24,000 nucleotides of DNA from Candidatus Competibacteraceae bacterium (GTDB taxonomy: Bacteria; Pseudomonadota; Gammaproteobacteria; Competibacterales; Competibacteraceae). The stretch lies in assembly GCA_003989085.1 (NCBI GenBank), contig RXIV01000011.1:51588-75587 (forward strand), read 5' to 3'. Made by a program: the position numbers and the translations under genes. Of this stretch, positions 1,357-22,945 are shown in pieces; position 1 is the first letter of the stretch, and each line of letters opens with the position of its first letter. The notes below the pieces were generated by a model. That model was not told the DNA's origin. It saw only the letters and a list, made by a program, of their open reading frames with translations, and searched no databases.

Positions 1357-2082
1357 ATGCCTCTGACCAACCGTCTCGCCGCTGAATTCATCGGCACCCT
1401 CTGGCTAGTGCTGGGCGGCTGTGGTAGTGCTGTGCTGGCCGCCGCTTTTCCCAGTGGCGATCCCACCAATCCTTTCGGCATCGCTTTCGTCGGTGTGTCG
1501 CTGGCTTTTGGCTTGACCGTACTGACTATGGCTTATGCCATCGGCCACATTTCCGGCTGCCATCTGAACCCAGCCGTTTCGGTAGGATTATGGGCGGGCG
1601 GGCGCTTTCCGGCGTCTGACCTAGTACCCTACATCATCGCCCAAGTGCTAGGCGGTCTGGCCGGCGCCACTATCATCTACCTGATCGCGACCGGTAAACC
1701 GGGTTTTGACGTGGTGGCGAGCGGCTTTGCCGCCAATGGTTTTGGTGAACACTCGCCGGGCAAGTACGGGCTGAACGCTGCGATCGTCTCTGAAATCGTG
1801 ATGACCTTCATGTTCCTGATCGTGATTCTCGGCTCAACCCACAAGAACACCCCGACCGGATTTGCGCCGATTGCCATTGGCCTGTGCCTGACGCTGATTC
1901 ATCTGATCAGCATCCCGGTCACTAATACTTCGGTTAATCCGGCTCGCAGTACCAGTCAGGCGATCTTTGTCGGTGGCTGGGCTTTGCAGCAACTGTGGCT
2001 GTTCTGGGTAATGCCGATCGTCGGCGCCGCCGCTGCCGGCTTCTTCCATCGCTGGATGGCGAGCGACCATCCATCCGCTTGA
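1357..2082 (+). CDS. aqpZ: Aquaporin Z (MIP-family water channel)
   Basis: 241 aa with six predicted TM segments and both NPA boxes (HLNPAVS, SVNPARS). Long stretches are collinear with E. coli AqpZ as I remember it ([54 protein letters not shown]). Confidence 0.95.
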
Positions 2083-2092
2083 TCCGGTAGAT

Positions 2093-2123
2093 GACGCCGG
2101 GTGCTTTCCTCGCACCCGGCGTC
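2093..2123. terminator. Strong GC-rich hairpin between convergent aqpZ and the DUF3047 gene (possible bidirectional terminator)
   Basis: GACGCCGGGTGC (2093-2104) pairs perfectly with GCACCCGGCGTC (2112-2123) around a 7-nt loop TTTCCTC. A T:A pair at 2092/2124 extends the stem to 13 bp. No clear U-tract on either strand, so intrinsic-terminator status is uncertain. Confidence 0.5.
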
Positions 2124-2130
2124 AGCCCCC

Positions 2131-2778
2131 TTACCGCGCCGTGAAATAAATATCACCGTACCAAGCGGCAGCGCGCTGACCACTGTTGTCGGTGTCAGTC
2201 ATCAGCGCCACGGCGTCCACAGCATCAATCTCCTCGCCAAACAGTTGCCGGAAGTCGACGCGGATATCGCGTTTCTCGCTGACCCAATGGCCGGCGTCCC
2301 TGGTTCCAGACCGTAACGCCATCACCCGGGCGTTGCTGGTAAAAGCGTTATTCCAGGTGGCCCCCACCGGCTGATTGCTGGACCAGACATAAATCAGCGA
2401 GCGGGTTTTCCAGAACGCCGCCCCACCGGAGACGACTATGTAGACCCGGGCTGGATAATCATCTCCGGCCTTGCTCCGCTCATCCACACCGTCCAGCACC
2501 TGATCGACCCGCCAGGACCAGTTCAGCCAGGGAGTACGGTTCAAATCGACCCGGATTTCCCGGTACAACCCGGACGCCGCCCCTTGGCTATCCGCAAACA
2601 GCGCCCGCCGCCCACTTTTATCGTCAATGCCATAGCGGGTTTCGCCCTTGAAAACTTTGGTCTGCCAGTCCGTCATCTCGCCGGCGGAAAACCGACCCAT
2701 CATGACCGATTCATCCGCTGCGCCCGCACCACTGGCAACCGCCAGCAGCACTGCACTCAACAGGGTTGGGTAGCTCAT
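2131..2778 (-). CDS. Periplasmic DUF3047 domain protein
   Basis: 215 aa. Sec signal peptide (MSYPTLLSAVLLAVASGAGA/ADES). Motifs I associate with Pfam DUF3047 (GDDYPARVYIVV, LMTDTDNSG, WYGDIYF). ATG at 2778 overlaps the stop of the upstream lipoprotein gene (ATGA, 4-bp overlap). Confidence 0.8.
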   Translation of the reverse strand: MSYPTLLSAVLLAVASGAGAADESVMMGRFSAGEMTDWQTKVFKGETRYGIDDKSGRRALFADSQGAASGLYREIRVDLNRTPWLNWSWRVDQVLDGVDERSKAGDDYPARVYIVVSGGAAFWKTRSLIYVWSSNQPVGATWNNAFTSNARVMALRSGTRDAGHWVSEKRDIRVDFRQLFGEEIDAVDAVALMTDTDNSGQRAAAWYGDIYFTAR

Positions 2779-4250
2779 GGTTGCTCCCTGACCGGTGTGA
2801 ACAGCCGGTCCAGCAAATCCGCATCATCAAAATGGCGTTGCCCCACGAAGGCAATCGCGTGTCGCCCCTGTTCGCGCATGGTGCCGGGCGAGGGAACGCC
2901 TGTCGGCCACAACAGCCAGCGCTCGGCCCGCTCGCTGCCCTCTACCAGCCCATCTGGCCCGAACAGGCTGCGTCGTCCGCCGCCCTCCACGGCCGCCGCA
3001 TACAGCATTGCGTAATCACGCGACGGTAGAATAGTCACCGCGCCCGGCTGGTCGCCGTAGACCCGTTGCAGCGAGTGACTACCGGAAGCCAGCCGGAGGA
3101 TTATCCGCTCACCCGGTTTGGGAATGGGCGCGGGTTGTGGCGCTAACGGGGGTTCGGCCCAATCCGCTGTTTCCGGCCTCAACCGCAAAGCCGGCCCCGG
3201 AAACAACAGGTGATAACAGCCACAGGGATGAATGCTGTCGTAGAGCAGGGGCTGGCCCGACTGATCCAGCGTCACCCGCCACAACATCCCATCCAACGGC
3301 CCGCCCAACAGATCGAATGCTCCGGTTTGCGGGCGGGCAGCGAACCAAACGAGGTAGTTCAGTTGCAGCACTGGTTCACCGCGCCAGCGAGTATAAGAGA
3401 CCGAGCGATAGACTACCGGTTCGCCAAGATTGACCGTCGGGATGCCATCAGCCCGCCAGTACGGGGTTCCAGGCTGGTCGGCATCACTGGCGACGTCAAT
3501 TTCCCAGATTGGCGCATGAGCCGCGAACAGGAGTTCCAGTTGTGCCGGTGTGGGTTCAGGAATGCCGAGCGCATCGCGGGGCAAGGCGGCGAAATCGGGG
3601 ACATCGGGCTGTTCAGGAGAACCATAGCGGCGCAATTCACCCTGAATCGGCAGTTCCGCCAGTGGTTGCGCGAACCAGGCGCGGGTTTCTGCCTGATAGC
3701 GGAATACCCCGAAATCCACCGGCAACATGGTCAGCGGATACAGTCCCACCACCTGATTCACAGTCAGGTATTCATCCGCGACTTGCGCCCGCGCCCGGAT
3801 CAGCGCCAGCCGTTCCTGATCGTGCAGATCAATAGCGCGCAGCGTAGCCGCACAACGCTCCAGCCGGGTGAGCATTCCGGTCCCCGGCGCATGACGGCGG
3901 TTTAACTCGGATTGAATCACGACCGGCAGCGAATTCCACTCCACTTGCCGGGCAGCCTGATCCAGCCGGTTCAGGCGTGTCAACCAAGCAGCAGTTGCAA
4001 CCGGGTTCATGGGTTGATTGCGGTAGCCCGCCAGAAAACGATCCACCCGCAGGTAGGGAAATCCGGCGATCCGGACCGGCGAGGATGGTGTAGTTCCCGC
4101 TGCCGCGACAGCGGTATCCAATGCGGCGTAAGCCTCCAGACAGTGTGCGGCGGCAGAATCCGCGGGTAGGCTGGGCGGATTCAGGGCGCAGCCGGCCAAC
4201 ATTGCCACCACTAATAAAAGTATGGGCAAGAACCACCGCAGTACATTCAT
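2775..4250 (-). CDS. Uncharacterised lipoprotein (491 aa), no family recognised
   Basis: Track ORF 2775-4421 trimmed to ATG 4250, which has GAGG 8-11 nt upstream. This gives MNVLRWFLPILLLVVAMLAGC, a textbook lipobox (LAG|C). The 57 codons upstream are basic and low-complexity, and would run into the divergent gene's ribosome-binding region. Conserved-looking IHPCGCYH and GRHAIAFVGQRHFDD segments. Confidence 0.75.
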   Translation of the reverse strand: MNVLRWFLPILLLVVAMLAGCALNPPSLPADSAAAHCLEAYAALDTAVAAAGTTPSSPVRIAGFPYLRVDRFLAGYRNQPMNPVATAAWLTRLNRLDQAARQVEWNSLPVVIQSELNRRHAPGTGMLTRLERCAATLRAIDLHDQERLALIRARAQVADEYLTVNQVVGLYPLTMLPVDFGVFRYQAETRAWFAQPLAELPIQGELRRYGSPEQPDVPDFAALPRDALGIPEPTPAQLELLFAAHAPIWEIDVASDADQPGTPYWRADGIPTVNLGEPVVYRSVSYTRWRGEPVLQLNYLVWFAARPQTGAFDLLGGPLDGMLWRVTLDQSGQPLLYDSIHPCGCYHLLFPGPALRLRPETADWAEPPLAPQPAPIPKPGERIILRLASGSHSLQRVYGDQPGAVTILPSRDYAMLYAAAVEGGGRRSLFGPDGLVEGSERAERWLLWPTGVPSPGTMREQGRHAIAFVGQRHFDDADLLDRLFTPVREQP

Positions 4251-4273
4251 CGTATTCGCCTCGTGTATTCTCG

Positions 4274-4297
4274 ATCCCAAAATCCCACCCAATCCCA
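4274..4297. promoter_or_regulatory. Three direct copies of ATCCCA in the 60-bp divergent control region
   Basis: ATCCCA at 4274-4279, 4282-4287 and 4292-4297 (starts 8 and 10 bp apart). They lie between the lipoprotein ATG (4250, minus) and the glycosyltransferase ATG (4311, plus). Candidate regulator-binding site; no known motif recognised. Confidence 0.3.
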
Positions 4298-4310
4298 ATT
4301 TGGAGAAACC

Positions 4311-5396
4311 ATGCGGGTTCATCTGCTCTCGACGGCGGTTGCGCCGCTCGGTTCCGGGCTGGGCGGCGGTGTGGAAACGATGGTCATCAACGCCGCTTCC
4401 CAGTTGCAGACTCTTGGCCATGTGGTACAGATCATTGCGCCGATAGGTTCAGTCGCCGCCGAGGTGACAGTGATTACCCTGCCGGGCCGGTTGGCGCCGA
4501 CTGCGGTGGGATGTGGCTACGACGCGCCGGCTACCCTCCAATCTGACGCCTTTCTGGCCCAAGCTCTGCGCTGGCTGGCTGAACAGGCCCGTTCCGGCGA
4601 TGTCATTCTGAACTTCTCGTATGACTGGCTGCCGCTGTTTCTGAGCGATTTCTTACCTTGCCCATTAGGAACGCTGATCAGCATGGGTTCGCTCAATCGC
4701 TCGCTGGATGAGGAAATCCGCCGCCTCGCCGCCGGGCATCCTGAACGGCTGGCTTTCCTCAGCACGGCTCAAGCTGCCAGTTTCGATCTAAATGCGCCGA
4801 TCCGCCGGATTCCGCCAGGGCTGGATTTGGCCCGATATCGCTACAATGCCCATCCTGGCCGCAACTTATGCTGGCTGGGGCGCATTGCGCCGGAAAAAGG
4901 GCTGGAAGACGCCTTCATCTTCGCTGCCCGCACCGGCCATGCCGTCACCGTGTTGGGCGTCCTGCAAGATCGCGACTACTGGGAACACTTGGTGCAAGGT
5001 TATCCCAAAGCCCCGGTTGATTATGGTGGCTTCCTGCGCCTGCCGGCGCTGGCTGAAGCGGTCGGGCAATTCCAGGCGCTGCTGATGACCCCGAAATGGC
5101 TGGAAGCATTTGGCATTGTTGGCATCGAGGCGCTGGCCTGCGGGACGCCCATCATCGCTTACCGGCGTGGCGGAATCAGCGATTATGTATTGGACGGAAT
5201 CACCGGTTGGCTGGTGGAACCGGACGATCTGGACGGACTCTGCGCGGCGGTAGCGCGAATGGGCCAGATTAACCGGAACGCCTGCCGGGCGCAGGTGGAA
5301 CAGGGCTATACCTTGGTGCAGTATGGGGCGGCGCTAGTGGACTGGTTGCGGACGATGACAGCAGGAACAGAACACTCAACAGGGGATGCAGGATGA
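4311..5396 (+). CDS. GT-B (GT4-like) glycosyltransferase, candidate pteridine glycosyltransferase (BGluT/PgtA-like)
   Basis: Track ORF trimmed to ATG 4311 (GGAGA at 4302-4306). 361 aa. The N-terminus MRVHLLSTAVAPLGSGLGGGVE resembles what I recall of cyanobacterial UDP-glucose:tetrahydrobiopterin glucosyltransferase. C-terminal retaining-GT motif EAFGIVGIEALACGTP. The stop overlaps the start of the next, PTPS-fold gene (ATGA at 5393-5396). Confidence 0.7.
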   Translation: MRVHLLSTAVAPLGSGLGGGVETMVINAASQLQTLGHVVQIIAPIGSVAAEVTVITLPGRLAPTAVGCGYDAPATLQSDAFLAQALRWLAEQARSGDVILNFSYDWLPLFLSDFLPCPLGTLISMGSLNRSLDEEIRRLAAGHPERLAFLSTAQAASFDLNAPIRRIPPGLDLARYRYNAHPGRNLCWLGRIAPEKGLEDAFIFAARTGHAVTVLGVLQDRDYWEHLVQGYPKAPVDYGGFLRLPALAEAVGQFQALLMTPKWLEAFGIVGIEALACGTPIIAYRRGGISDYVLDGITGWLVEPDDLDGLCAAVARMGQINRNACRAQVEQGYTLVQYGAALVDWLRTMTAGTEHSTGDAG

Positions 5397-5917
5397 CGGG
5401 GCAGAATGGACAGCAGCAGTGGCTGATTCACATCCGCAAGGATCATCTCAAATTCGCGGCGGCGCATATGACCGTGTTCCCCGACGGCGGCAAGGAAAGC
5501 CTGCACGGGCATAACTATCAGGTTGAGCTGACGGTGGAACTGACTGAACCGGCGCTGGCGCGGATGCTCAGTTACGAGGTTTTTAAACAGGCGTTAAAGA
5601 CCGTGTGCCGCGCTTGGGATGAGAAAGTGCTGATCGCCGCCGACAATCCGTGGCTGAAATGGCTGCCTGCCGAGGCCGACGAGTACGCCTTCCGGCTATG
5701 TGGCAAACGCTATGTGCTGCCGGCGGATGAAGTAGCGATGTTGGAGGTAGACAACATCAGCGCTGAAAATCTGGCCCGGCTGCTGTTTGAGCGGTTCTGG
5801 GCGGAACTGACTACCGACCGCGCCGTGCCGTGGCGGGAACGGATTATCGCCGTCAGTTTGCGGATTGATGAATCACGCGGACAGGGCGCGACTTACGCGA
5901 TTCGGTTCAAGAATTGA
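5393..5917 (+). CDS. 6-pyruvoyl-tetrahydropterin synthase / QueD-fold protein, non-canonical (paralog A)
   Basis: 174 aa. COG0720-type motifs FAAAH and LHGHNYQVELTVEL (zinc His triad present). The Cys of the CxxxHGH motif is Lys here (GKESLHGH). AGGGGA SD upstream; ATGA coupling to the preceding glycosyltransferase. Confidence 0.8.
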   Translation: MTGQNGQQQWLIHIRKDHLKFAAAHMTVFPDGGKESLHGHNYQVELTVELTEPALARMLSYEVFKQALKTVCRAWDEKVLIAADNPWLKWLPAEADEYAFRLCGKRYVLPADEVAMLEVDNISAENLARLLFERFWAELTTDRAVPWRERIIAVSLRIDESRGQGATYAIRFKN

Positions 5918-6713
5918 CGGTGGCGAACAGGTCCCAGTGGCCGACCACCAGCCGCGAATCACCTTGCTCAATGAGATGCTCGCGCTGCTTGGCCCAAATC
6001 CGCAGCCAGTCTGCCGGCTCTGGCGTTATTTCCCGCACCGCCGCTGCCCATCCGCTCAGTAGCGCATACTGCAACGAGGCGTGTTCCGGCCCCAGCTGCC
6101 ACGGGCTTGGCTGCAATTCCACCTGATAACCCCGCTCTTCCAACATCGCCGCCAGCATCGGAGCCGCGTCAGGACCCAGCGCCGGGCCAAACCCCTTATC
6201 CGTGTGTTGATGACGATTGATCAATTTGCACACTCGATCATCGCCGGCCAGCGCCGGTTCCCAGTGGATCGTCCCATCGTAACTCAACACGATGAAGACC
6301 GCTGCCTGCCAGGTCTGACATCGCCGGGCCAACCGCGCCAGCCCGTCGGTCGAAATCAGATCCAGCAGCGCCGAGGCTGTCACCAGTTGCACCTGCGGAA
6401 TATCCAGCCTTTCCCACGATCCTGCTAAATCCAGACAGATCGTTTCCAGTTGGAACGGGCCGGGGCAATCCGGGAACGGGGCGATTCGCGCCAGCAGTCC
6501 CGGATCATGATCAATCAGCCGCCAGTGCTGGCCGCCACCGAGCAACGGCGCTAGAAAGCGGCCATTGGCTCCGGCGCCACTGCCCAAATCCAGCACCGAC
6601 AAGTGGCCTTGTCCCCGCCGCCAGTCGCACAACCGGGCGGTGAGTTCCTGGTTGCGGGAGGCGGCGTCCACCGGTTCGCGCAACGCCAGCCAGTCGGCGG
6701 AAAAACGACCCAT
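5907..6713 (-). CDS. Class I SAM-dependent methyltransferase
   Basis: 268 aa. SAM-binding motif I VLDLGSGAGANG followed by an acidic motif II (WRLIDHD). Starts 6 bp after the stop of the upstream glycosyltransferase. Its 3' end overlaps the convergent PTPS-A gene by 11 bp. Confidence 0.8.
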   Translation of the reverse strand: MGRFSADWLALREPVDAASRNQELTARLCDWRRGQGHLSVLDLGSGAGANGRFLAPLLGGGQHWRLIDHDPGLLARIAPFPDCPGPFQLETICLDLAGSWERLDIPQVQLVTASALLDLISTDGLARLARRCQTWQAAVFIVLSYDGTIHWEPALAGDDRVCKLINRHQHTDKGFGPALGPDAAPMLAAMLEERGYQVELQPSPWQLGPEHASLQYALLSGWAAAVREITPEPADWLRIWAKQREHLIEQGDSRLVVGHWDLFATVNS

Positions 6714-6719
6714 TGCGAT

Positions 6720-7769
6720 TTACGCCCGCACGGCTTCAAGCGCCGCCGCAAACCGGGTGCAGGCTTGCGGCCAGTCGGGCAAGGTGTGTCGGGCAGCCCG
6801 CGCTCCAGCAGCCAGTTTCCGCCGCAGTTCCGGTTCATCCAGCACCCGCGCCAGCGCTTCGGTCAGCGCCGCGACATCCCCTGGCGGCACCAGCAAACCT
6901 GCGTCTGCTGGCACAGTGTCGGGAATCGCCCCAGCCGTGGTGCTCAGGATTGGCAAACCCCGCGCCAGCGCCTCCGCCAGCACCATGCCATAACCTTCGT
7001 GGAAAGACGGCAGTACGAAAGCATCCGCCTGCTGGTAAGCAGACTCCAGCGCCTCATGATCCAGTTCTCCCAGTAATTCAATCCGATCCGTCAACCCTAA
7101 TTCCCCAATCAGCGCCTGCAAACTGGCCGACGTGACGGGATCAAACACTAGACTTCCGGCGCAGCGCAGTCGCCATTCATACTGTTTCAGCCGGGCCAAA
7201 GCGTGAAACAGCACGGCATGGCCTTTGCGTGGGGTCAGGCTGGCAACGCATAACAACACCAGCTCCGTACCCACCGAACCGCTCGCCAATGACGCGGGAT
7301 CGGTACCCGGCAAAACGACGGCGCAATGTTCCGACGCCACCGCGTAATCGGCCAGCGCCTGCGCCGTGCTGGGACTGGTGACGATAACCTGTCGGACATG
7401 GCATAACGCCTCGCGCTCGCTGGCGTAAAACTGTTGCCGCTGCCGCCCGTCCAGCCCGGTTTCCAGCGCCAGCGGGTGATGCACCAGCCCGACCAACCGC
7501 AACCGCCGCCCGTGAGCTGCCGCGACGGCAGGCATTGCGCCCAGCGCCAGCCCATCGATCACCACCCGCGCCTGATTCGGCAACGCCGCCAACACCGCCT
7601 CCGCCTCCAGCAAGGCGCTTGCATCCGGATAGGGAAAGGTCGCGCTCAACCGATGCCTTTCGACTTGCCAACCCAAGCTTCCCAAGCCGTCCATAATCCG
7701 GCGGTCGTAGCGATAGCCGCCGGTGCGGGTATCGGGATCGCCAGGAATCAGGAAATAAACCACTTTCAC
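6720..7769 (-). CDS. Glycosyltransferase family 4/1 (GT-B)
   Basis: C-terminal [16 protein letters not shown] (E-x7-E) and a GT-B layout. I prefer the GTG at 7769 as start: it overlaps the stop of the upstream PTPS-B gene as GTGA and gives [24 protein letters not shown]. The track start at 7796 would overlap PTPS-B by 31 bp. 349 aa with the preferred start. Confidence 0.75.
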
Positions 7770-8167
7770 GGCAACGATCCCTCGTAAGACGCCCAAGCGA
7801 CGTGCGATTCATGCAAGGTAACGCGCATCGAACTGAGGCCAGCAGCGCCAGTTCCCAATTGACCATCCTCAATCCACATCGCGATGCGATCAAAAATCAC
7901 CCGCGCCAGCGCCTCGGTGGTGGTGTTGTGCCCAATAAATTGCGGCAGCTCGTCAAGATTGCGGTAATTCAGCTCATCCAGTGCGGCCCGCAAAGCGTCG
8001 CTGAGCTTGCCAATATCCACCACCACGCCGTCCGGGTCCAGTTCGGGCCGGCGCAGCTCCACGTCAACAACATAGGTTGCGCCGTGCAGGCGCTGGGCAG
8101 GGCCGAAGGTTTCGCCCCGAAAACTATGGGCGATCATGAAATGATCGCGGACGCAAATGGCATACAT
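7766..8167 (-). CDS. 6-pyruvoyl-tetrahydropterin synthase / QueD-fold protein, degenerate active site (paralog B)
   Basis: 133 aa. [29 protein letters not shown] has the COG0720 layout, but the HGH motif reads HGA and there is no Cys at -4 (AQRLHGA). AAGGA SD upstream of ATG 8167. Confidence 0.8.
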
Positions 8168-8232
8168 GGCGGATTCCTTATGGGTTGCTCATGGAGCATT
8201 GAGACGTTGAGCCAGTACGCAAGATCAGCGCA

Positions 8233-9201
8233 TCAGGCATAAACAATCCGCCGGCACAGTACACCTGTGGCCTTCTGACTCACTTCAGTCATGACCTGCG
8301 GCAGATCAGTAAAGGGACTTTCCCCGCTAATCAGCGCGTCCAGCGCCGGATCGTCCAGCAATTTCATCACGGTCGCCATGCGTCGTTGATGGTTCCAGCG
8401 ACTGCGTTGCGCCGTCGCAACCTGGCCGACCTGGGAACTGCGGATGCAGAGCCGTTTAGCGTGGAAGTCCTCGCCCAGCAGCAGGCTAACCGGCTGAGTC
8501 CCGAACCAGCTGGCTTCCACCACCATCGCCTCAAACCCGGCCAACCTGAGCGCTGTCGCCAGTCCAGCCGGCGAACCACTGGCATGGATCAGCACATCCT
8601 GCCCGTCTTCCGCCTGTTCTGGCACGGCGAAATGGACGCCCAGATGCGCCGCAAGCAGAGCCTTGTCCGGATCAATATCGATCAGTTGCACCCGGCAACC
8701 CGGCAATTTTCCCGCCAGCCGGGCGATCAGGCTGCCCACCACTCCAGCGCCGATCACGCTAATCCGATCGCCCAAACGTGGCGCGGCATCCCATAGGACA
8801 TTCAGCGCGGTTTCCATATTAGCGGCCAACACGGCCCGACCCGGAGGAACCGATGCTGGAATGGGAGTGATCGCCGTTGCCGGAACGATGTAGCGATCTT
8901 GATGGGGGTAGAGGCAAAAACCGACTTTTCCCTGCAAAGCTGCCGGACCGGCTTCGACGATACCGACATTGCAGTAGCCGTACTTGACTGGCGCAGGAAA
9001 TTCACCCTGCTGGAATGGCGCCCGCATGGCCTGATACTGGCTAGGAGGAACTTCGCCGCGAAACACCCGGCTTTCGGTGCCGCGACTGATGGCGGTGTAC
9101 AGCGTCCGCACCCGGACTTCATCGGGATCGGGCGGCGGGAGTGGTTCAGTGCGAAGCTCACCCCGACCAGGCGCGGTCAACCAGAAGGCCCGCGCTGTCA
9201 T
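8233..9201 (-). CDS. MDR-superfamily (zinc-type alcohol dehydrogenase-like) oxidoreductase lacking catalytic zinc ligands
   Basis: 322 aa. GroES-like N-terminal domain plus Rossmann motif VIGAGVVGSL. The positions normally GxCGTD and GHExxG read AISRGTE and YGYCNVG, reminiscent of the BchC-like MDR subgroup. Confidence 0.8.
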   Translation of the reverse strand: MTARAFWLTAPGRGELRTEPLPPPDPDEVRVRTLYTAISRGTESRVFRGEVPPSQYQAMRAPFQQGEFPAPVKYGYCNVGIVEAGPAALQGKVGFCLYPHQDRYIVPATAITPIPASVPPGRAVLAANMETALNVLWDAAPRLGDRISVIGAGVVGSLIARLAGKLPGCRVQLIDIDPDKALLAAHLGVHFAVPEQAEDGQDVLIHASGSPAGLATALRLAGFEAMVVEASWFGTQPVSLLLGEDFHAKRLCIRSSQVGQVATAQRSRWNHQRRMATVMKLLDDPALDALISGESPFTDLPQVMTEVSQKATGVLCRRIVYA

Positions 9202-9246
9202 GTTGGGAGCACAAATTTGGCAGCGGCAGAACCAGAAGAATCCAAC

Positions 9247-9792
9247 TCAGGATCGCTGCAACGCCGCTTCCACGGCATCGCGCTGAGTCCGCCCGCACAG
9301 CAGTTCGATAAGGGTCAAGCTGAAATCCAGCGCGGTGCCGGGGCCCCGTGACGTGATAAAGGTTCCGTCGCGCACCACCGCCGCGCTGCTCAACTGGATC
9401 TCCGCCCGCCCATCGAGAATGCCCGGATAGGCGGTGGCTTCCCGATCATTCAGCAACCCGGCCTTGGCCAGCACCCGAGGCGCGGCGCAAATGGCGGCGA
9501 CATAGCGGCCCTGTTCGGTCATCCGCCGCAACAACGCCGTAATCCGCCGATCCGCTTCCAGCCGTTCCGCGCCGCCCAGCCCACCGGGCAACACCACCAG
9601 ATCGAAATCCTGATCCAGCACTGCATCGAGTGTGGTTTCTGGCAGCAGCACGACCCCCCGCGAGGCTGTGACCGGCCCGGCCTCCAGTCCGGCGACCACC
9701 ACCGTCACGCCAGCGCGGCGCAGCAGGTCAATGATTGTGACCGCTTCCAGTTCTTCACAGCCCTGAGCAAGGGGGACCAATACGGTAGTCAT
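9247..9792 (-). CDS. DJ-1/PfpI (YajL/ThiJ-like) family protein
   Basis: 181 aa. MTTVLVPLAQGCEELEAV..; nucleophile-elbow Cys in AAICAAP; DLVVLPGG. Strong SD AGGAGAA 7 nt upstream. Starts 18 bp after the ctp stop. Confidence 0.85.
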   Translation of the reverse strand: MTTVLVPLAQGCEELEAVTIIDLLRRAGVTVVVAGLEAGPVTASRGVVLLPETTLDAVLDQDFDLVVLPGGLGGAERLEADRRITALLRRMTEQGRYVAAICAAPRVLAKAGLLNDREATAYPGILDGRAEIQLSSAAVVRDGTFITSRGPGTALDFSLTLIELLCGRTQRDAVEAALQRS

Positions 9793-9810
9793 GACCGGGT
9801 TCTCCTGGGG

Positions 9811-11172
9811 TTATTTCTGGATCGGGGATTGGGCGGATTCCGTCGTCTTGAGCGGTTGCAGCAGCGTCATGCCCTTGAGTAGGTTCAAGGCCTCATACAG
9901 TTGATAATCGCTGTGGGCCAGATCGCTATCGGGCGCTTTGGCGTCTACTGCGCCTGGCGCATCCTCAGCGGCTTTGTCTGATTTGTCGTTGCGCAGATGG
10001 CCGGTCAGATCGGCTTCCTTGATGGCATCGGTGTCGGCGCCATTATCAGCAGCCACTTTCATCGGCTTGAGCTGGATGTCAGGAACGATGCCTTCCGCCT
10101 GAATCGAACGGCCATTCGGCGTGTAGTAGCGGGCGGTGGTCAGTTTGACCGCCGTACCGTTGCCCAACGGCAGAATGCTCTGCACCGAGCCTTTGCCGAA
10201 GGTGCGCTCGCCAACGATCAGCGAGCGCCGGTGATCCTGCAAAGCGCCGGCGACAATTTCCGAGGCCGAGGCAGATCCGCCATTGACCAGAGTGACGATA
10301 GGCGCTGCCTTAAGCAGATCGCCCGGGGTGGCCTTGTAGCTCTGATCGGAGCCATTGCCGCGCCCTTTGGTCTGGACGATCACGCCGTCATCGAGGAAGT
10401 CGTCGACCACATCGACTGCGCCATTGAGCACCCCACCCGGGTTGTTGCGTAAATCCAGCACCAGTCCACGCAATGGGGCCTTGTTTTGCTGCTCCAGCTC
10501 CTGAATCGCCTGCTCCAGATTCTGGGCGGTCCTGGCCTGAAACTGGGTGATCCGCAAATAGCCGAAACCAGGCTCCAGCAAGCGGCTCTTGACGCTCTTG
10601 ACTTGGATCACTTCACGAATCAGCTTGATTTTGAGCGGCTTTCTGGCCCCTTCCCGGATAATGGTCAGGGTAATGGCCGTGTTGGGCTTGCCGCGCATTT
10701 TCTGGATCGCGTCAGCCAGCGCCATGCCTTTCACCGACACATCATCCAGCCGGATAATCAAATCGCCGGCGCGAATCCCGGCGCGTTGGGCTGGGGTATC
10801 GTCAATCGGGGCGATAACCTTGAGAAAGCCGTCTTCCTGCCCGACTTCGATACCCAGCCCGCCAAATTCCCCGGTGGTGCCGATTTGCAAATCCTGGAAC
10901 GCTTCGGCGTCCAGATAGGCAGAATGCGGATCAAGATTACTTAACAGGCCGCGAATGGCGTTTTCCAGCAGATCCTTGTCCTTGACTGGCTCGACATAAT
11001 CCTGCTTGACGGCATCGAGTACGCCAGTAAAGGTGCGCAATTCGTCCAGTGGCAGTTGATTGTCCGGCGGGGGTTCTTTCCCGGCGGCGGCCTGCGCCGG
11101 GCTTAGCGCTATGCCCGCCAGCAAGCTCAACGCCAGCGCCAGGCCGTGGCGGGTGGCAGTACGGATGTTCAA
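9811..11172 (-). CDS. ctpA: Carboxy-terminal processing protease (S41 family)
   Basis: PDZ region plus S41 catalytic core (GGSASASE, ..TFGKGSVQ). Track ORF trimmed to TTG 11172 (GAGGGA SD 7 nt upstream). This gives LNIRTATRHGLALALSLLAGIALSPAQA, a signal peptide, and a typical length of about 453 aa. The 74 upstream codons look non-coding and overlap the gpmA 3' end. Confidence 0.85.
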   Translation of the reverse strand: MNIRTATRHGLALALSLLAGIALSPAQAAAGKEPPPDNQLPLDELRTFTGVLDAVKQDYVEPVKDKDLLENAIRGLLSNLDPHSAYLDAEAFQDLQIGTTGEFGGLGIEVGQEDGFLKVIAPIDDTPAQRAGIRAGDLIIRLDDVSVKGMALADAIQKMRGKPNTAITLTIIREGARKPLKIKLIREVIQVKSVKSRLLEPGFGYLRITQFQARTAQNLEQAIQELEQQNKAPLRGLVLDLRNNPGGVLNGAVDVVDDFLDDGVIVQTKGRGNGSDQSYKATPGDLLKAAPIVTLVNGGSASASEIVAGALQDHRRSLIVGERTFGKGSVQSILPLGNGTAVKLTTARYYTPNGRSIQAEGIVPDIQLKPMKVAADNGADTDAIKEADLTGHLRNDKSDKAAEDAPGAVDAKAPDSDLAHSDYQLYEALNLLKGMTLLQPLKTTESAQSPIQK

Positions 11173-11311
11173 TGCGGAGTCCCTCAAAAGTAATGACCAA
11201 TTACAGCGGATAAAACCGGGCAGGCCGGCGACGATGGAATAAGACCACCGGTAGAACCCGGAAATTGCGGGGCCGGGATTTAATTTTAGGCGGGAAGTGA
11301 TGGCGAGAGCG

Positions 11312-11346
11312 CCCTGGTGTTCAATCCAAAGAATTAAACACCAGGG
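11312..11346 (-). terminator. Hairpin just downstream of gpmA (possible terminator or attenuator)
   Basis: CCCTGGTGTT (11312-11321) pairs perfectly with AACACCAGGG (11337-11346) around a 15-nt loop, 23 bp past the gpmA stop. No U-tract follows on the minus strand, so function is uncertain. Confidence 0.3.
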
Positions 11347-11368
11347 ATGAGGGGCAGCGAAATAACCG

Positions 11369-12121
11369 TTACTTGGCCTTGCCCTGGTTGGCAACCGCTT
11401 CCATCAGTTTCTTTAATTCTTCGGGGTCGGCGATGTAGCTGCCGCCCTTCTTGATCGGGCGCAGGTTGGCGTCGAGTTCATAGACCAGCGGCACTGCGGT
11501 CGGGATGTTCAGGGCGATGATCTCCTCGTCGGACAGATCATCGAGATACTTGACCAACGCCCGCAGACTGTTGCCATGCGCAGCGATCAACACCCGCTTG
11601 CCGGAGCGAATCGCCGGAACGATGGTGTCGTGCCAGAACGGCAACACCCGGTCAATGGTGGTCTTGAGGCTTTCAGTCGCCGGCAGCACCCGGGCGTCAA
11701 GGCCAGCGTAGCGCGGATCAAAGGCCGGATGACGCGGATCGTTCAGTTCGAGCGGCGGCGGCGGAATGTCAAAGCTGCGCCGCCAGATCTTGACCTGGTC
11801 CTCACCGTGCTTGGCGGCGGTTTCGGACTTGTTCAGCCCGGCCAGCGCCCCGTAATGCCGCTCGTTCAGCCGCCAGCTTCGTTGCACCGGAATCCAGGCC
11901 AGATCCATTTCATCCAGCACCGTCCACAGGGTATGAATGGCGCGCTTCAGTACTGAGGTAAAGGCGACATCGAAACCATAGCCTTCCTTTTTCAACGCCT
12001 GTCCACCCTTGCGGGCTTCTTCACGGCCTTTGTCGGACAGGTCTACATCGACCCAGCCGGTGAAACGGTTTTCCATGTTCCATTGGCTTTCGCCGTGACG
12101 GATCAGCACGATCTTGTACAT
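11369..12121 (-). CDS. gpmA: 2,3-bisphosphoglycerate-dependent phosphoglycerate mutase
   Basis: 250 aa. [29 protein letters not shown] (RHG phosphohistidine motif), ..ERHYGAL.., ..[12 protein letters not shown].. These are hallmarks of dPGM. Confidence 0.95.
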
Positions 12122-12233
12122 TATCGATGGCTCCTTGGTTCAGGGGTTCGGGGATTGCTAAAATGGCGGCAACATCCGGAGATTGGCAAAAATTAAACTG
12201 TTTGATCATACCCCTGGCCTGCTGGTTTCGCCA

Positions 12234-12264
12234 GTTGCGCCCTGTTGCGCACGATCCGCGCAAC
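12234..12264. promoter_or_regulatory. GTTGCGC repeat set, candidate operator in the gpmA / ArsR-regulator divergent region
   Basis: GTTGCGC at 12234-12240 and 12244-12250 (direct repeats), and GCGCAAC at 12258-12264 (inverted). Copies 2 and 3 form GTTGCGC-N7-GCGCAAC, about 93 bp upstream of the regulator ATG. Confidence 0.3.
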
Positions 12265-12356
12265 TTCTCAATGACACACCATTCCGCTATGCTGATTCAC
12301 GCTAATTCCCGGAGACCGGGTTTATTCAAGGCAAGGTGCGTAATGAGAGTGCGAGC

Positions 12357-12689
12357 ATGATGCTGATGAGCGCCAGCCATCCCCCAATGGATGCGCTGAT
12401 GCATCACGATGAGGAAATCGAACGGGCTTCCCGGGCGCTCAAAGCGATGTCGCACCCGTTGCGGCTCAAAATCCTCTGTACGCTGGGGGATCAGGAAAGC
12501 AGTGTTCAGGATATTGTTGATCAGGTGGGCACCTCACAGAGCAATATCTCCCAGCACCTGGCTATTTTGCGCGACAAGGGGATTTTGACCTGTCGCAAGG
12601 ACGCCAACCGGGTCTATTACCGGGTAGGCGATGCAGGCACACTGTGTCTGATTGGCATGATGCGGGATGTGTTTTGCAAACAGACCTGA
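12357..12689 (+). CDS. ArsR/SmtB-family transcriptional repressor, SqrR/BigR/YgaV-like (candidate persulfide/thiol switch)
   Basis: Winged-HTH core HPLRLKILCTL..SVQDIVDQVGTSQSNISQHLAILRDKGIL..RVYYRV. Start uncertain: GTG 12336 (track) or ATG 12357 (GAGAG upstream). Counted from ATG 12357 the flanking cysteines are Cys41 and Cys107, 66 residues apart, the spacing I recall for SqrR and BigR. Confidence 0.8.
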   Translation: MMLMSASHPPMDALMHHDEEIERASRALKAMSHPLRLKILCTLGDQESSVQDIVDQVGTSQSNISQHLAILRDKGILTCRKDANRVYYRVGDAGTLCLIGMMRDVFCKQT

Positions 12690-21581: not shown

Positions 21582-22811
21582 TCAGCTCCGGTTGGGTCGC
21601 AGCCGGCGATAGAGATCGTAAGTCTGCTGGGCGATACTCCGCCAACTGTAGTACTGCTCCACTCGTTCGCGGCCCGCCTGACCCATCCGTTCGCGCAGTG
21701 CGGGATCAGCCGCCAGTCGGTTAATGGCGTCGGCCAACCCATGCTCAAAACGGGCTGGCGCGACGGGATCATGCGGCGATTCCGCCGACAGGTGCGGGTC
21801 CACCAGAAAGCCGGTTTCGCCGTCCACCACCACTTCGTTGATGCCGCCCACCGCGCTGCCGACTACCGGAATGCCGCAAGCCATCGCCTCCAGATTGATG
21901 ATCCCGAACGGTTCGTAAATCGACGGGCAGCAGAAAATGGCGGCATGGGAGTAGAGCGCGATGGTGGTTTGCCGCGACACCATCTTGGGAATCCAGACAA
22001 TGCCGTCGCGATGGGTTTGCAGCTCTTGCACCATATCTTCCATTTCGCGTTGCATCGCCAGGGTGTCGGCATCACCGGCGCACAGCACAATTTGCAACTT
22101 GGGATCGAGATGCGGAATCGCTTGCAGCAGATAGTACAACCCCTTTTGCCGGGTCATCCGCCCGACAAACAGCACATAAGGCCGGTTGGGATCAACGCCG
22201 AGCGCGGCAATCGCTTCAGGGGCGTGAACATCCCGGTATTCTTCAGTATCAATCCCGTTGGGAATGACGACGACCCGGGTCGGCTCCACGTCAAACAGCC
22301 GCAGAATATCGTCGCGGGTGCTGCGCGACACGGCAATGATCGCGTCGGCCGTTTCCAGCGCGGTTTTTTCGATCCAACGCGACAGATCGTAGCCGTGACC
22401 CAGTTGATCACGCTTCCAGGGCCGTAGAGGCTCCAGCGAATGAACGGTGATCACCATCGGGATGTTGTAGAGAATCTTGGCGAGAATCCCGCTGAAGTGG
22501 GCGTACCAAGTATGACAATGGATGATTTCAGCCGCCCCTTCCAGATCGCCAATGCCTTGGCCAACGAATGCAAGACAAGTGCTGAGCGCCTTGAGCGGCG
22601 AGACAAACGATTGCGGGCAGCCGGCAAAATGAGTGGTATCCATCTTGATGCCGCGCACATGCAACTGGCCCTCGTCTACGGTCTGGTCGTGGAAGCTGCG
22701 GACTTCAACCGGGGTCAGCTTGGCCAGCTCGCGGGACAGGTATTCGACATGGACGCCCGCGCCACCGTAGACGTAGGGGGGATATTCATTGGTAGTCAGC
22801 AGAACGCGCAT
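21582..22811 (-). CDS. glgA: GT4 glycogen synthase of the Corynebacterium/mycobacterial GlgM type
   Basis: Track ORF trimmed to ATG 22811 (AAGGGAG SD). 409 aa. The N-terminus MRVLLTTNEYPPYVYGGAGVHVEYLSRELAK closely resembles the actinobacterial GlgA/GlgM N-terminus as I recall it. C-terminal E-x7-E (EPFGIINLEAMACGIP). Confidence 0.75.
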   Translation of the reverse strand: MRVLLTTNEYPPYVYGGAGVHVEYLSRELAKLTPVEVRSFHDQTVDEGQLHVRGIKMDTTHFAGCPQSFVSPLKALSTCLAFVGQGIGDLEGAAEIIHCHTWYAHFSGILAKILYNIPMVITVHSLEPLRPWKRDQLGHGYDLSRWIEKTALETADAIIAVSRSTRDDILRLFDVEPTRVVVIPNGIDTEEYRDVHAPEAIAALGVDPNRPYVLFVGRMTRQKGLYYLLQAIPHLDPKLQIVLCAGDADTLAMQREMEDMVQELQTHRDGIVWIPKMVSRQTTIALYSHAAIFCCPSIYEPFGIINLEAMACGIPVVGSAVGGINEVVVDGETGFLVDPHLSAESPHDPVAPARFEHGLADAINRLAADPALRERMGQAGRERVEQYYSWRSIAQQTYDLYRRLRPNRS

Positions 22812-22945
22812 TGTTGTTGTACTCCCTTGGCCGGGTGTGCGGCGATAGGTGGGGACGAGTTGCGATGGAGCGTCAGTCAGAATCAATCAACCTTTGAATT
22901 ATGCCAAGCGAAACGGGGTTTTTGAACGGGTGACCGCAGCCTCAT

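Follow-up and report, generated by a model that had tools for sequence, protein, structure and literature searches.

Two convergent gene arms with PTPS-fold proteins in a Competibacteraceae bacterium: a probable pterin-glycoside module beside part of a PTPS-IV cluster

The DNA considered here is a stretch of 24,000 nucleotides (the window) from contig RXIV01000011.1 of a Candidatus Competibacteraceae bacterium. It has a G+C content of about 60% and is of Competibacteraceae-type gammaproteobacterial origin; near-identical proteins are found in metagenome-assembled genomes (MAGs) of Competibacter and Contendobacter. Six adjacent open reading frames (ORFs) in the window form two convergent arms, each with a protein of the PTPS (6-pyruvoyl-tetrahydropterin synthase) fold beside a glycosyltransferase. 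The plus arm consists of GT-A (4311-5396, 361 aa; Pfam GT4/Glycos_transf_1, E 1.4e-15), a glycosyltransferase whose closest structures in the PDB (5ZER/5ZE7) place it in the pteridine glycosyltransferase (PGT/BGluT) family, and PTPS-A (5393-5917, 174 aa; Pfam PTPS, E 3.6e-13), which represents a distinct PTPS subfamily. The minus arm begins with MDR (8233-9201, 322 aa; ADH_zinc_N, TIGR01202), a BchC-like or polyol-dehydrogenase-like member of the medium-chain dehydrogenase/reductase superfamily, and continues with PTPS-B (7766-8167, 133 aa; Pfam PTPS, E 3.9e-27), a T-fold protein of the PTPS-IV subfamily (SCO6650 type); GT-B (6720-7769, 349 aa; Pfam Glycos_transf_1, E 1e-34), a GT4 glycosyltransferase; and MT (5907-6713, 268 aa), a class I S-adenosylmethionine (SAM)-dependent methyltransferase with a weak match to Methyltransf_25 (E 0.0016). 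By coordinates and by sequence the arms meet in an 11-bp overlap of the 3' ends of PTPS-A and MT (5907-5917); the evidence reviewed below suggests that this is the junction of two modules rather than the middle of one pathway.

Within each arm the genes are tightly packed. GT-A and PTPS-A share an ATGA overlap at 5393-5396, PTPS-B and GT-B a GTGA overlap at 7769-7766, and the TAA stop codon of GT-B (6722-6720) is separated from the ATG of MT at 6713 by 6 bp; a GGAG ribosome-binding site at 4302-4305 precedes the ATG of GT-A (4311) by 5-6 nt. Genes called independently on L099, a sister contig (contigs and loci used for comparison are given by L numbers), encode proteins of the same lengths, 361, 174, 268, 349, 133, and 322 aa. 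The initial annotation, made from the sequence alone, had described this two-armed arrangement with its couplings and had identified two glycosyltransferases, two PTPS-fold proteins, a methyltransferase and an MDR dehydrogenase; the couplings are all seen in the sequence, the layout is borne out by the ORFs, their domains, and the L099 gene calls, and the gene identities are upheld by Pfam and NCBIfam and, for MDR, by an AlphaFold2 (AF2) model. Pfam and NCBIfam scans also agree with its statement that the 24-kb window holds no folE, queC, queE, or folate genes, and found no other que gene. Domain scans of the same 24 kb likewise found no gene for a short-chain dehydrogenase/reductase (SDR), GTP cyclohydrolase II (GCH-II), RibD_C reductase, or CDP-alcohol transferase, and no flippase-like or creatininase gene. 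A promoter and terminator scan of 2000-12500 gave nothing beyond shuffled expectation and no terminator-like site at the 5907-5917 junction.

GT-A is assigned by sequence comparison to the pteridine glycosyltransferases. In phmmer searches of the PDB its best match over the full length is the UDP-glucose:tetrahydrobiopterin glucosyltransferase BGluT of Synechococcus (5ZER/5ZE7, E 1.9e-84), to which it aligns with 44% identity over 344 columns and no gaps; a second tetrahydrobiopterin glucosyltransferase, 9V0L, follows at E 4.8e-78. The next structure, 7FG9, reaches E 3.5e-19 and generic GT4 enzymes E 1e-7 or weaker, so that non-PGT structures of the GT4 family score at least 60 orders of magnitude worse than BGluT. 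Relatives of GT-A in a search of 5.8 billion proteins fall into a Competibacteraceae tier at 64% identity or more and a next, cyanobacterial tier at 46-49%, and numerous homologues bear the JGI name UDP-glucose:tetrahydrobiopterin glucosyltransferase. The comparison with BGluT that had been suggested for GT-A thus places the protein with the pteridine glycosyltransferases, above unrelated GT4 clades. Residues 218 and 258 of the Arthrospira PGTs, which might have hinted at the donor sugar of GT-A, are reported only to modulate specificity.

PTPS-A has its closest PDB structures in the Plasmodium PTPS proteins 1Y13 and 2A0S. It retains all three histidines of the zinc site as well as the C-terminal Glu, and the motif K34-E35-S-L-H38-G-H40 (ExxHGH) is, together with H25, invariant across the family (alignment A2), as are the family's own blocks LCGKRYVLP, DEV, and GQGA. 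The ExxHGH signature has been assigned to PTPS-III by the de Crecy-Lagard group (PMC5041015), and PTPS-A conforms to the PTPS-III motif, namely ExxHGH with an intact zinc His triad. At the dyad position, which is Asp-His in other PTPS enzymes, the family invariantly carries Asp-Glu (D76-E77, within WDEK). Assignment to PTPS-II is rejected, as there is no Cys on the N-terminal side of HGH and the Cys-Asp-His triad is lost (D76-E77), and so is assignment of either PTPS-fold protein to PTPS-I/QueD, in view of the Lys that replaces Cys in PTPS-A, the LHGA of PTPS-B, and a window without que genes; the QueD equivalog model of NCBIfam gives the two proteins 44-50 bits against a cut-off of 89. The motifs of PTPS-A would fit formation of either 6-pyruvoyl-tetrahydropterin or 6-hydroxymethyl-dihydropterin.

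The context of PTPS-A was surveyed in 80 metagenome loci, with ORF clustering on 84 loci. In the Competibacteraceae-like branch of the family, 16 of the 33 loci with enough DNA have a pteridine glycosyltransferase immediately upstream of PTPS-A, an SDR gene lies 3' of PTPS-A in 11 of 40, and a DUF3047 gene is found divergently upstream of the PTPS-A/PGT pair in 13 of the 22 loci that extend far enough upstream. PGT-PTPS-SDR operons occur in L011, L115, L133, L135, and L146, and in two other Competibacteraceae genomes (L011 and L012) the glycosyltransferase/PTPS-A arm stands alone, followed by the SDR gene or by nothing. A distant PTPS-A branch (about 50% identity, freshwater and marine) has the SDR as divergent upstream neighbor in 23/26 loci and no glycosyltransferase. 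The SDR partners have only generic SDR/FabG-like matches in NCBIfam, and the label sepiapterin reductase can therefore not be asserted for them. ORF clustering of the 84 loci brought out no folE, folK/P, or que genes and no fol-gene cluster of the kind associated with PTPS-III, but only lineage synteny. In several loci of the distant branch (L001 10544-10918, L152, L157, L171, L178) PTPS-A is directly followed by a small PTPS-fold protein of about 124-134 aa with a Pfam PTPS match, no NCBIfam match, and an H-F-H motif, which may be a partner subunit.

In the window the divergent neighbors of GT-A, across about 60 bp, are two minus-strand genes that overlap by 4 bp: a predicted lipoprotein (2775-4250; 491 aa counted from M58, lipobox LAGC), without a Pfam or NCBIfam match, and a DUF3047 protein with a signal peptide (2131-2778; Pfam DUF3047, E 1.5e-63). 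A DUF3047 gene precedes the PGT/PTPS-A arm in L011, L012, and L099, the last with a counterpart of the 491-aa lipoprotein, and the lipoprotein often accompanies DUF3047 upstream of PTPS-A/PGT in related loci (many of L105-L151). These conserved divergent neighbors, which distinguish the plus arm from the cyanobacterial and Chlorobium pathway considered next, may connect a pterin glycoside with the periplasm or the cell envelope. One Competibacteraceae genome has a sulfite-oxidase-like (Oxidored_molyb) protein (L012 7610-8524) beside DUF3047 and the PGT arm; the sulfite-oxidase-like fold includes periplasmic pterin-binding regulators, which could bear on the role of a pterin glycoside.

Biopterin glycosides are made by the combined action of PTPS, sepiapterin reductase, and PGT (PMC4133829, PMC5683033). 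Because a PTPS, an SDR, and a pteridine glycosyltransferase follow this logic, the plus arm is very probably a pterin-glycoside module. It resembles the pteridine-glycoside pathway of cyanobacteria and Chlorobium (BGluT of Synechococcus PCC 7942, PgtA of Synechocystis, CtPGT) in having a full-length, gapless homologue of BGluT and in pairing it with a PTPS-fold gene, to which sister genomes add the SDR. It differs in its gammaproteobacterial host, in a PTPS with ExxHGH/WDEK instead of the CxxxxxHGH of the PTPS-II type, and in the translational coupling of GT-A and PTPS-A, as the cyanobacterial PGT locus examined (L013) has no PTPS neighbor. In the proposed mechanism a folE in another part of the genome would provide 7,8-dihydroneopterin triphosphate, which PTPS-A would convert to a 6-substituted pterin (6-pyruvoyl-tetrahydropterin or 6-hydroxymethyl-dihydropterin); an SDR, adjacent in sister genomes and absent from the window, would reduce that product; and GT-A would move a UDP-sugar onto a side-chain hydroxyl, donor and acceptor being proposed by analogy.

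The minus arm is of a different kind. Residues 21-25 of PTPS-B read FGPAQ, the signature of PTPS-IV, whose gene neighborhood includes PF00925 and PF01872 (PMC5445326), and the protein matches PDB 3D7J, 'uncharacterized protein SCO6650' of Streptomyces coelicolor, with E 1.5e-49. On this motif and this homology PTPS-B is classed as a PTPS-IV protein of the SCO6650 type. LHGA replaces HGH, with loss of the third zinc histidine, and the catalytic Cys is absent; invariant positions in the PTPS-IV alignment (A1) are H14, H28, D51, and E120. The best PDB matches of GT-B are MshA (7QSG), Tll1590, PimB', PimA, and sucrose-phosphate-synthase-like proteins; by these similarities it is a generic GT4 enzyme outside the pteridine glycosyltransferase family. 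MT carries the SAM motif VLDLGSGAG, and Methyltransf_25 is matched by 11/12 of its orthologues (best E 3e-10); its single-sequence structure model (pLDDT 38.6) was too low in confidence for a fold search. The AF2 model of MDR (pLDDT 85), a protein that is BchC-like by TIGR01202, has threonine, idonate, butanediol, xylitol, and sorbitol dehydrogenases as its top Foldseek matches (TM-score about 0.75, 14-21% identity); these structural neighbors are generic for the superfamily and would indicate a substrate class at best.

When the PTPS-IV alignment was run against a collection holding one genome for each species, at least 596 related stretches were recovered, and the counts that follow are from the 80 best. 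The four-gene core of MDR, PTPS-IV, GT4, and MT is colinear in 69 of the 80 loci, in the order seen in the window, which makes the minus arm a member of the PTPS-IV cluster; individually MDR is present in 77/80, directly upstream of PTPS-IV, GT4 in 77/80, and MT in 72/80. Around this core lie genes for a CDP-alcohol phosphatidyltransferase (64/80), a RibD_C reductase (55/80), GCH-II (42/80), a flippase-like protein (LPG_synthase_TM; 42/80), and a creatininase-type hydrolase (30/80). Both Pfam and NCBIfam uphold these accessory domains; the CDP-alcohol transferase is PgsA/AIP-synthase-like, the RibD_C reductase matches TIGR01508, and the creatininase-family protein has a weak ArfB match. ORF clustering of the 80 loci, whose phyla include Pseudomonadota, Actinomycetota, Acidobacteriota, Gemmatimonadota, and Myxococcota, found no folE, folK/P, or que genes. 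In tblastn searches of annotated plasmids and chromids, the complete core with identical gene order was seen in Thiodictyon, Methylosinus trichosporium OB3b, Rhizobium, Microbacterium, and Streptomyces, and in Haloarcula MDR, PTPS-IV, and GT4 are followed by a hypothetical protein at the MT position; the annotated clusters also include the CDP-alcohol transferase, RibD-family reductase, GCH-II, creatininase, and a 'lysylphosphatidylglycerol synthase TM' protein. The haloarchaeal version has GCH-IIa, a cytochrome b is sometimes present, and an F420-dependent oxidoreductase lies near the Streptomyces cluster.

GT4 and MT are fused in one frame of about 640 aa in 14/71 loci (for example L041 10396-12330), and they therefore act together. 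The other fusions are in L029, L038, L042, L052, L053, L055, L062, L066, L068, L078, L079, L084, and L089; fusion loci are mainly from Halomonadaceae, and also from a Burkholderiales MAG, Rhodovulum, and Actinomadura. The cluster of S. coelicolor (SCO6650-SCO6655) has the same FGPAQ and the same core order, as do those of Halomonadaceae in order, whereas the window has the four-gene core only, and the position convergent to MT that RibD_C takes in such clusters is held by the PTPS-A/PGT arm. Neither RibD_C nor GCH-II lies in this window, though both are common in orthologous loci, RibD_C also in the Competibacter relatives L020-L022.

The cluster GCH-II was compared with E. coli RibA at the position of Tyr105, where Tyr is mostly kept (36 of 39 loci) and Met occurs only in 3 loci from Streptomyces (L017, L086, L095; LRAMALQ); His occupies the same position in Spirillospora, Actinomadura, and Nocardiopsis (L077, L089, L096; RTHILQ). 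A Tyr-to-Met change in GCH-II is reportedly linked to formation of a formylated pyrimidine (FAPy). SCO6655 presumably forms such a formylated pyrimidine, and SCO6650 is presumably without zinc. As a general scheme, FAPy formation followed by a deformylase is rejected, Met being confined to Streptomyces among the loci examined, and many loci whose GCH-II bears Tyr nonetheless have a creatininase-like gene.

The literature searched reports no product for the PTPS-IV cluster in any organism. The partners of the minus arm in other genomes (GCH-II, RibD_C, CDP-alcohol transferase, and flippase-like protein) point to a GCH-II-derived, possibly membrane-linked product and not to a decorated pterin derived from GTP cyclohydrolase I (GCH-I). 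As a hypothetical scheme, GCH-II would open GTP to 2,5-diamino-6-ribosylaminopyrimidinone phosphate, RibD_C would reduce the ribosyl to the ribityl form, and MDR would oxidize a secondary hydroxyl of the polyol chain, possibly the C2'-OH; oxidation at C2' would give an Amadori-type ketone able to close to a dihydroneopterin-phosphate-like ring, as in the GCH-I reaction. The zinc-poor T-fold of PTPS-IV would bind the 2-amino-4-oxopyrimidine moiety and close or rearrange the ring; because the pterin-anchoring Glu (E120) is kept and the full zinc site is not, the protein could hold and cyclize an aminoketone. GT4 and MT would then add a methylated sugar, and, in full clusters, the product would be linked to a phospholipid and flipped to the outer leaflet, attachment and export being suggested by the CDP-alcohol transferase (PgsA/AIP-synthase-like) and the flippase-like protein. 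That the full cluster makes such an undescribed GTP-derived, cofactor-like molecule, with a GCH-I-independent pterin-type ring, a methylated sugar, and a phospholipid anchor on the outer face, is a speculative and, on balance, unlikely proposal; if true, the juxtaposition with a genuine pterin-glycoside module would reflect shared pterin chemistry.

The same neighbors can be read as early enzymes of riboflavin or deazaflavin (F420) precursor metabolism, in which PTPS-IV and MDR would process ribitylaminopyrimidines, for example in a missing deaminase-type step, with GT and MT acting on a molecule of the flavin type. GCH-II/IIa, RibD_C, and the creatininase/ArfB-like hydrolase are all enzymes of early riboflavin or FO synthesis, and full minus-arm clusters share them with the archaeal start of riboflavin and F420 synthesis (GCH-IIa/III ArfA, ArfB, ArfC); the F420-dependent oxidoreductase near the Streptomyces cluster is compatible with this assignment. 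Unlike in the ArfA/ArfB/ArfC route, however, these genes are combined with MDR, a T-fold protein, GT4, methyltransferases, and membrane-lipid enzymes, and none of the Arf-type genes lies in the window. Lumazine synthase, riboflavin synthase, FO synthase, and Cof genes are not among the conserved PTPS-IV neighbors, and known routes to flavins or F420 make no use of enzymes such as the conserved CDP-alcohol transferase, flippase-like protein, GT4, and MT. A 2026 review moreover describes a new function 'unrelated to flavin biosynthesis' for GCH-II of the S. coelicolor cluster type. A flavin or F420 role for the minus arm is therefore unlikely.

Whether the two arms belong together can be judged from their distribution. 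All 80 PTPS-IV loci are free of PGT and PTPS-A genes for 10 kb around PTPS-IV. Of the 40 metagenome loci that allow the test, only 3 show a minus arm convergent to PTPS-A, and in these PTPS-A is 84-95% identical to that of the window. Otherwise the tail-to-tail layout recurs only in close relatives, as in L099 and L100, contigs of a close relative with a GT-A 89% identical to that of the window, while in Competibacter denitrificans and two related MAGs (L020-L022) the gene convergent to MT is RibD_C. Each module thus lacks its usual last gene at the junction, SDR after PTPS-A and RibD_C convergent to MT, as expected from a rearrangement that joined two loci. In other Competibacteraceae lineages the MDR orthologue is found elsewhere, adjoining or near a CDP-alcohol transferase.

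MDR is preceded, across a 45-bp gap, by co-directional genes for GpmA, a C-terminal processing protease (Ctp), and DJ-1/glyoxalase III (9247-12121, minus strand), of which DJ-1 is the nearest, and L099-L102 share the order GpmA-Ctp-DJ-1-MDR, including those that lack the other minus-arm genes. In L101 (11185-12033) and L102 (10978-11826) an insertion sequence (IS) transposase follows MDR; the DJ-1/MDR synteny is kept, and PTPS-IV, GT, and MT are absent. In L014 (8024-9753) an IS/transposase is likewise next to the MDR orthologue, and PTPS-IV, GT, and MT are not at that site. The PTPS-IV cluster thus appears to have been scrambled by mobile elements in Competibacteraceae. DJ-1, Ctp, and GpmA are rejected as cluster members, since their synteny persists in L101 and L102 without PTPS-IV, GT, and MT; because DJ-1 and MDR stay together where the rest of the arm is absent, the minus-arm promoter may lie upstream of DJ-1.

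The arms are accordingly regarded as two independent modules for GTP-derived heterocycles, probably placed tail to tail by rearrangement in this Competibacteraceae lineage. Several observations weigh against this interpretation or against the chemistry proposed for its parts. Several contigs from close relatives (L099, L100, L103, L104, and L107) retain the two arms tail to tail, so that a lineage-specific functional link is possible. Both pathways are incomplete in the window, and the missing genes are assumed to lie in other parts of the genome. Glu replaces the dyad His in PTPS-A, whose reaction may differ from that of every characterized PTPS type. For the minus arm, the deformylase role of the creatininase-like hydrolase is uncertain outside Streptomyces, where the GCH-II Tyr is mostly kept, and according to a published aside (PMC5041015, citing unpublished data) PTPS-IV belongs to F420 synthesis, which does not match a product of the pterin type.

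The initial annotation had instead proposed that all six genes serve one metabolite resembling cyanopterin, arguing that the repeated coupling of a PTPS-fold protein to a glycosyltransferase implies a pterin acceptor and that two glycosyltransferases and one methyltransferase suit such a product. Cyanopterin of Synechocystis is a 6-hydroxymethylpterin with a 4-O-methylglucuronosyl-galactoside, and two glycosyltransferases, a methyltransferase, and a PTPS with a motif of the 6-hydroxymethylpterin type would fit a compound of this structure, GT-A adding the first sugar, GT-B the second, MT the methyl group, and MDR serving as side-chain reductase. Several findings favor such a pathway: GT-A is a true pteridine glycosyltransferase by family; GT-B and MT, judged by the fusions of their orthologues, work together, as would suit a methylated sugar; in sister genomes PTPS-A is followed by an SDR that the plus arm here lacks, and MDR might in principle stand in for it; and the layout with its 11-bp 3' overlap is conserved among the contigs of close relatives. 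The argument from coupling, however, holds for the plus arm (GT-A and PTPS-A) and fails for the minus arm, in which PTPS-B is a PTPS-IV protein and GT-B is not a pteridine glycosyltransferase. Nor do the six genes co-occur across genomes: plus-arm genes are absent from all 80 loci that carry MDR, PTPS-IV, GT, and MT, and the three PTPS-A loci with an adjoining minus arm are all at 84% identity or more, in other words from the closest relatives, which leaves a single six-gene cyanopterin-like pathway unsupported. The arms are kept apart in other Competibacteraceae; GT-B and MT retain their partners in phyla where no pteridine glycosyltransferase was seen nearby, and thus belong to a separate module whose position beside GT-A is lineage-specific; no link to cyanobacterial pgtA loci was seen; and convergent arms are not co-transcribed. 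A joint pathway is for these reasons decidedly unlikely.

That PTPS-A is instead a PTPS-III enzyme supplying 6-hydroxymethyl-dihydropterin to folate synthesis as a FolB bypass, with GT-A merely glycosylating surplus pterin, would agree with its ExxHGH motif, which defines PTPS-III, and with its nearest structures, the Plasmodium enzymes that supply the folate pathway, but is very unlikely given that the conserved partners of PTPS-A are SDR, the pteridine glycosyltransferase, and DUF3047, that no folK/folP-like conserved neighbor emerged, and that Asp-Glu stands in place of Asp-His throughout the family.

With two modules as the preferred reading, the two-armed 'cluster' becomes a juxtaposition rather than a six-gene pathway, and the product of the PTPS-IV cluster becomes the real question. 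The plus arm would add to the known pteridine-glycoside systems a member from a new phylum whose PTPS is of a new subfamily. Pterin glycosides are known chiefly from cyanobacteria and Chlorobium, and the plus arm would widen their range to the glycogen-accumulating Competibacteraceae of wastewater; the PTPS-A subfamily (ExxHGH, WDEK, LCGKRY, GQGA), with the SDR as its steady partner, offers a testable tetrahydropterin route in many uncultured freshwater and activated-sludge bacteria. The minus arm is an incomplete version of a cluster already noticed earlier, through the neighborhood of PTPS-IV with PF00925/PF01872 and the solved structure of SCO6650, and is the more valuable lead: a cluster of nine to ten genes found in hundreds of species, in at least five phyla and haloarchaea, with one member of known crystal structure (SCO6650) and another, a GCH-II homologue, that is reported to have a new function. 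The neighborhood census, with its CDP-alcohol transferase, flippase-like protein, GT-MT fusions, and polyol-dehydrogenase-like MDR, supplies a hypothetical, testable pathway to an orphan metabolite derived from GTP.

Genes for envelope glycans are found at some of the loci compared. In Halomonadaceae and Rhizobium a second methyltransferase, of FkbM type, borders the PTPS-IV cluster, and periplasmic-glucan genes lie near it in Halomonadaceae (MdoH and MdoG) and Methylosinus (MdoH); one Competibacteraceae genome has an MdoG gene some 5 kb away from the PGT arm. These genes are located at L041 16172-20362, L007 6070-7872, L009 5128-5883, and L011 3272-4552. ORF clustering of the 84 PTPS-A and 80 PTPS-IV loci turned up purEK, MdoGH, and the FkbM methyltransferase as lineage synteny, and the proximity of MdoG, MdoH, and FkbM may reflect chance synteny or a link to envelope glycans. 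The window itself has a third GT4 gene 12 kb from the six genes (21582-22886, minus strand, 434 aa), which encodes Glyco_transf_4 and Glycos_transf_1 domains and a starch-synthase-like segment; at 25% identity to GT-A it is seemingly unrelated.

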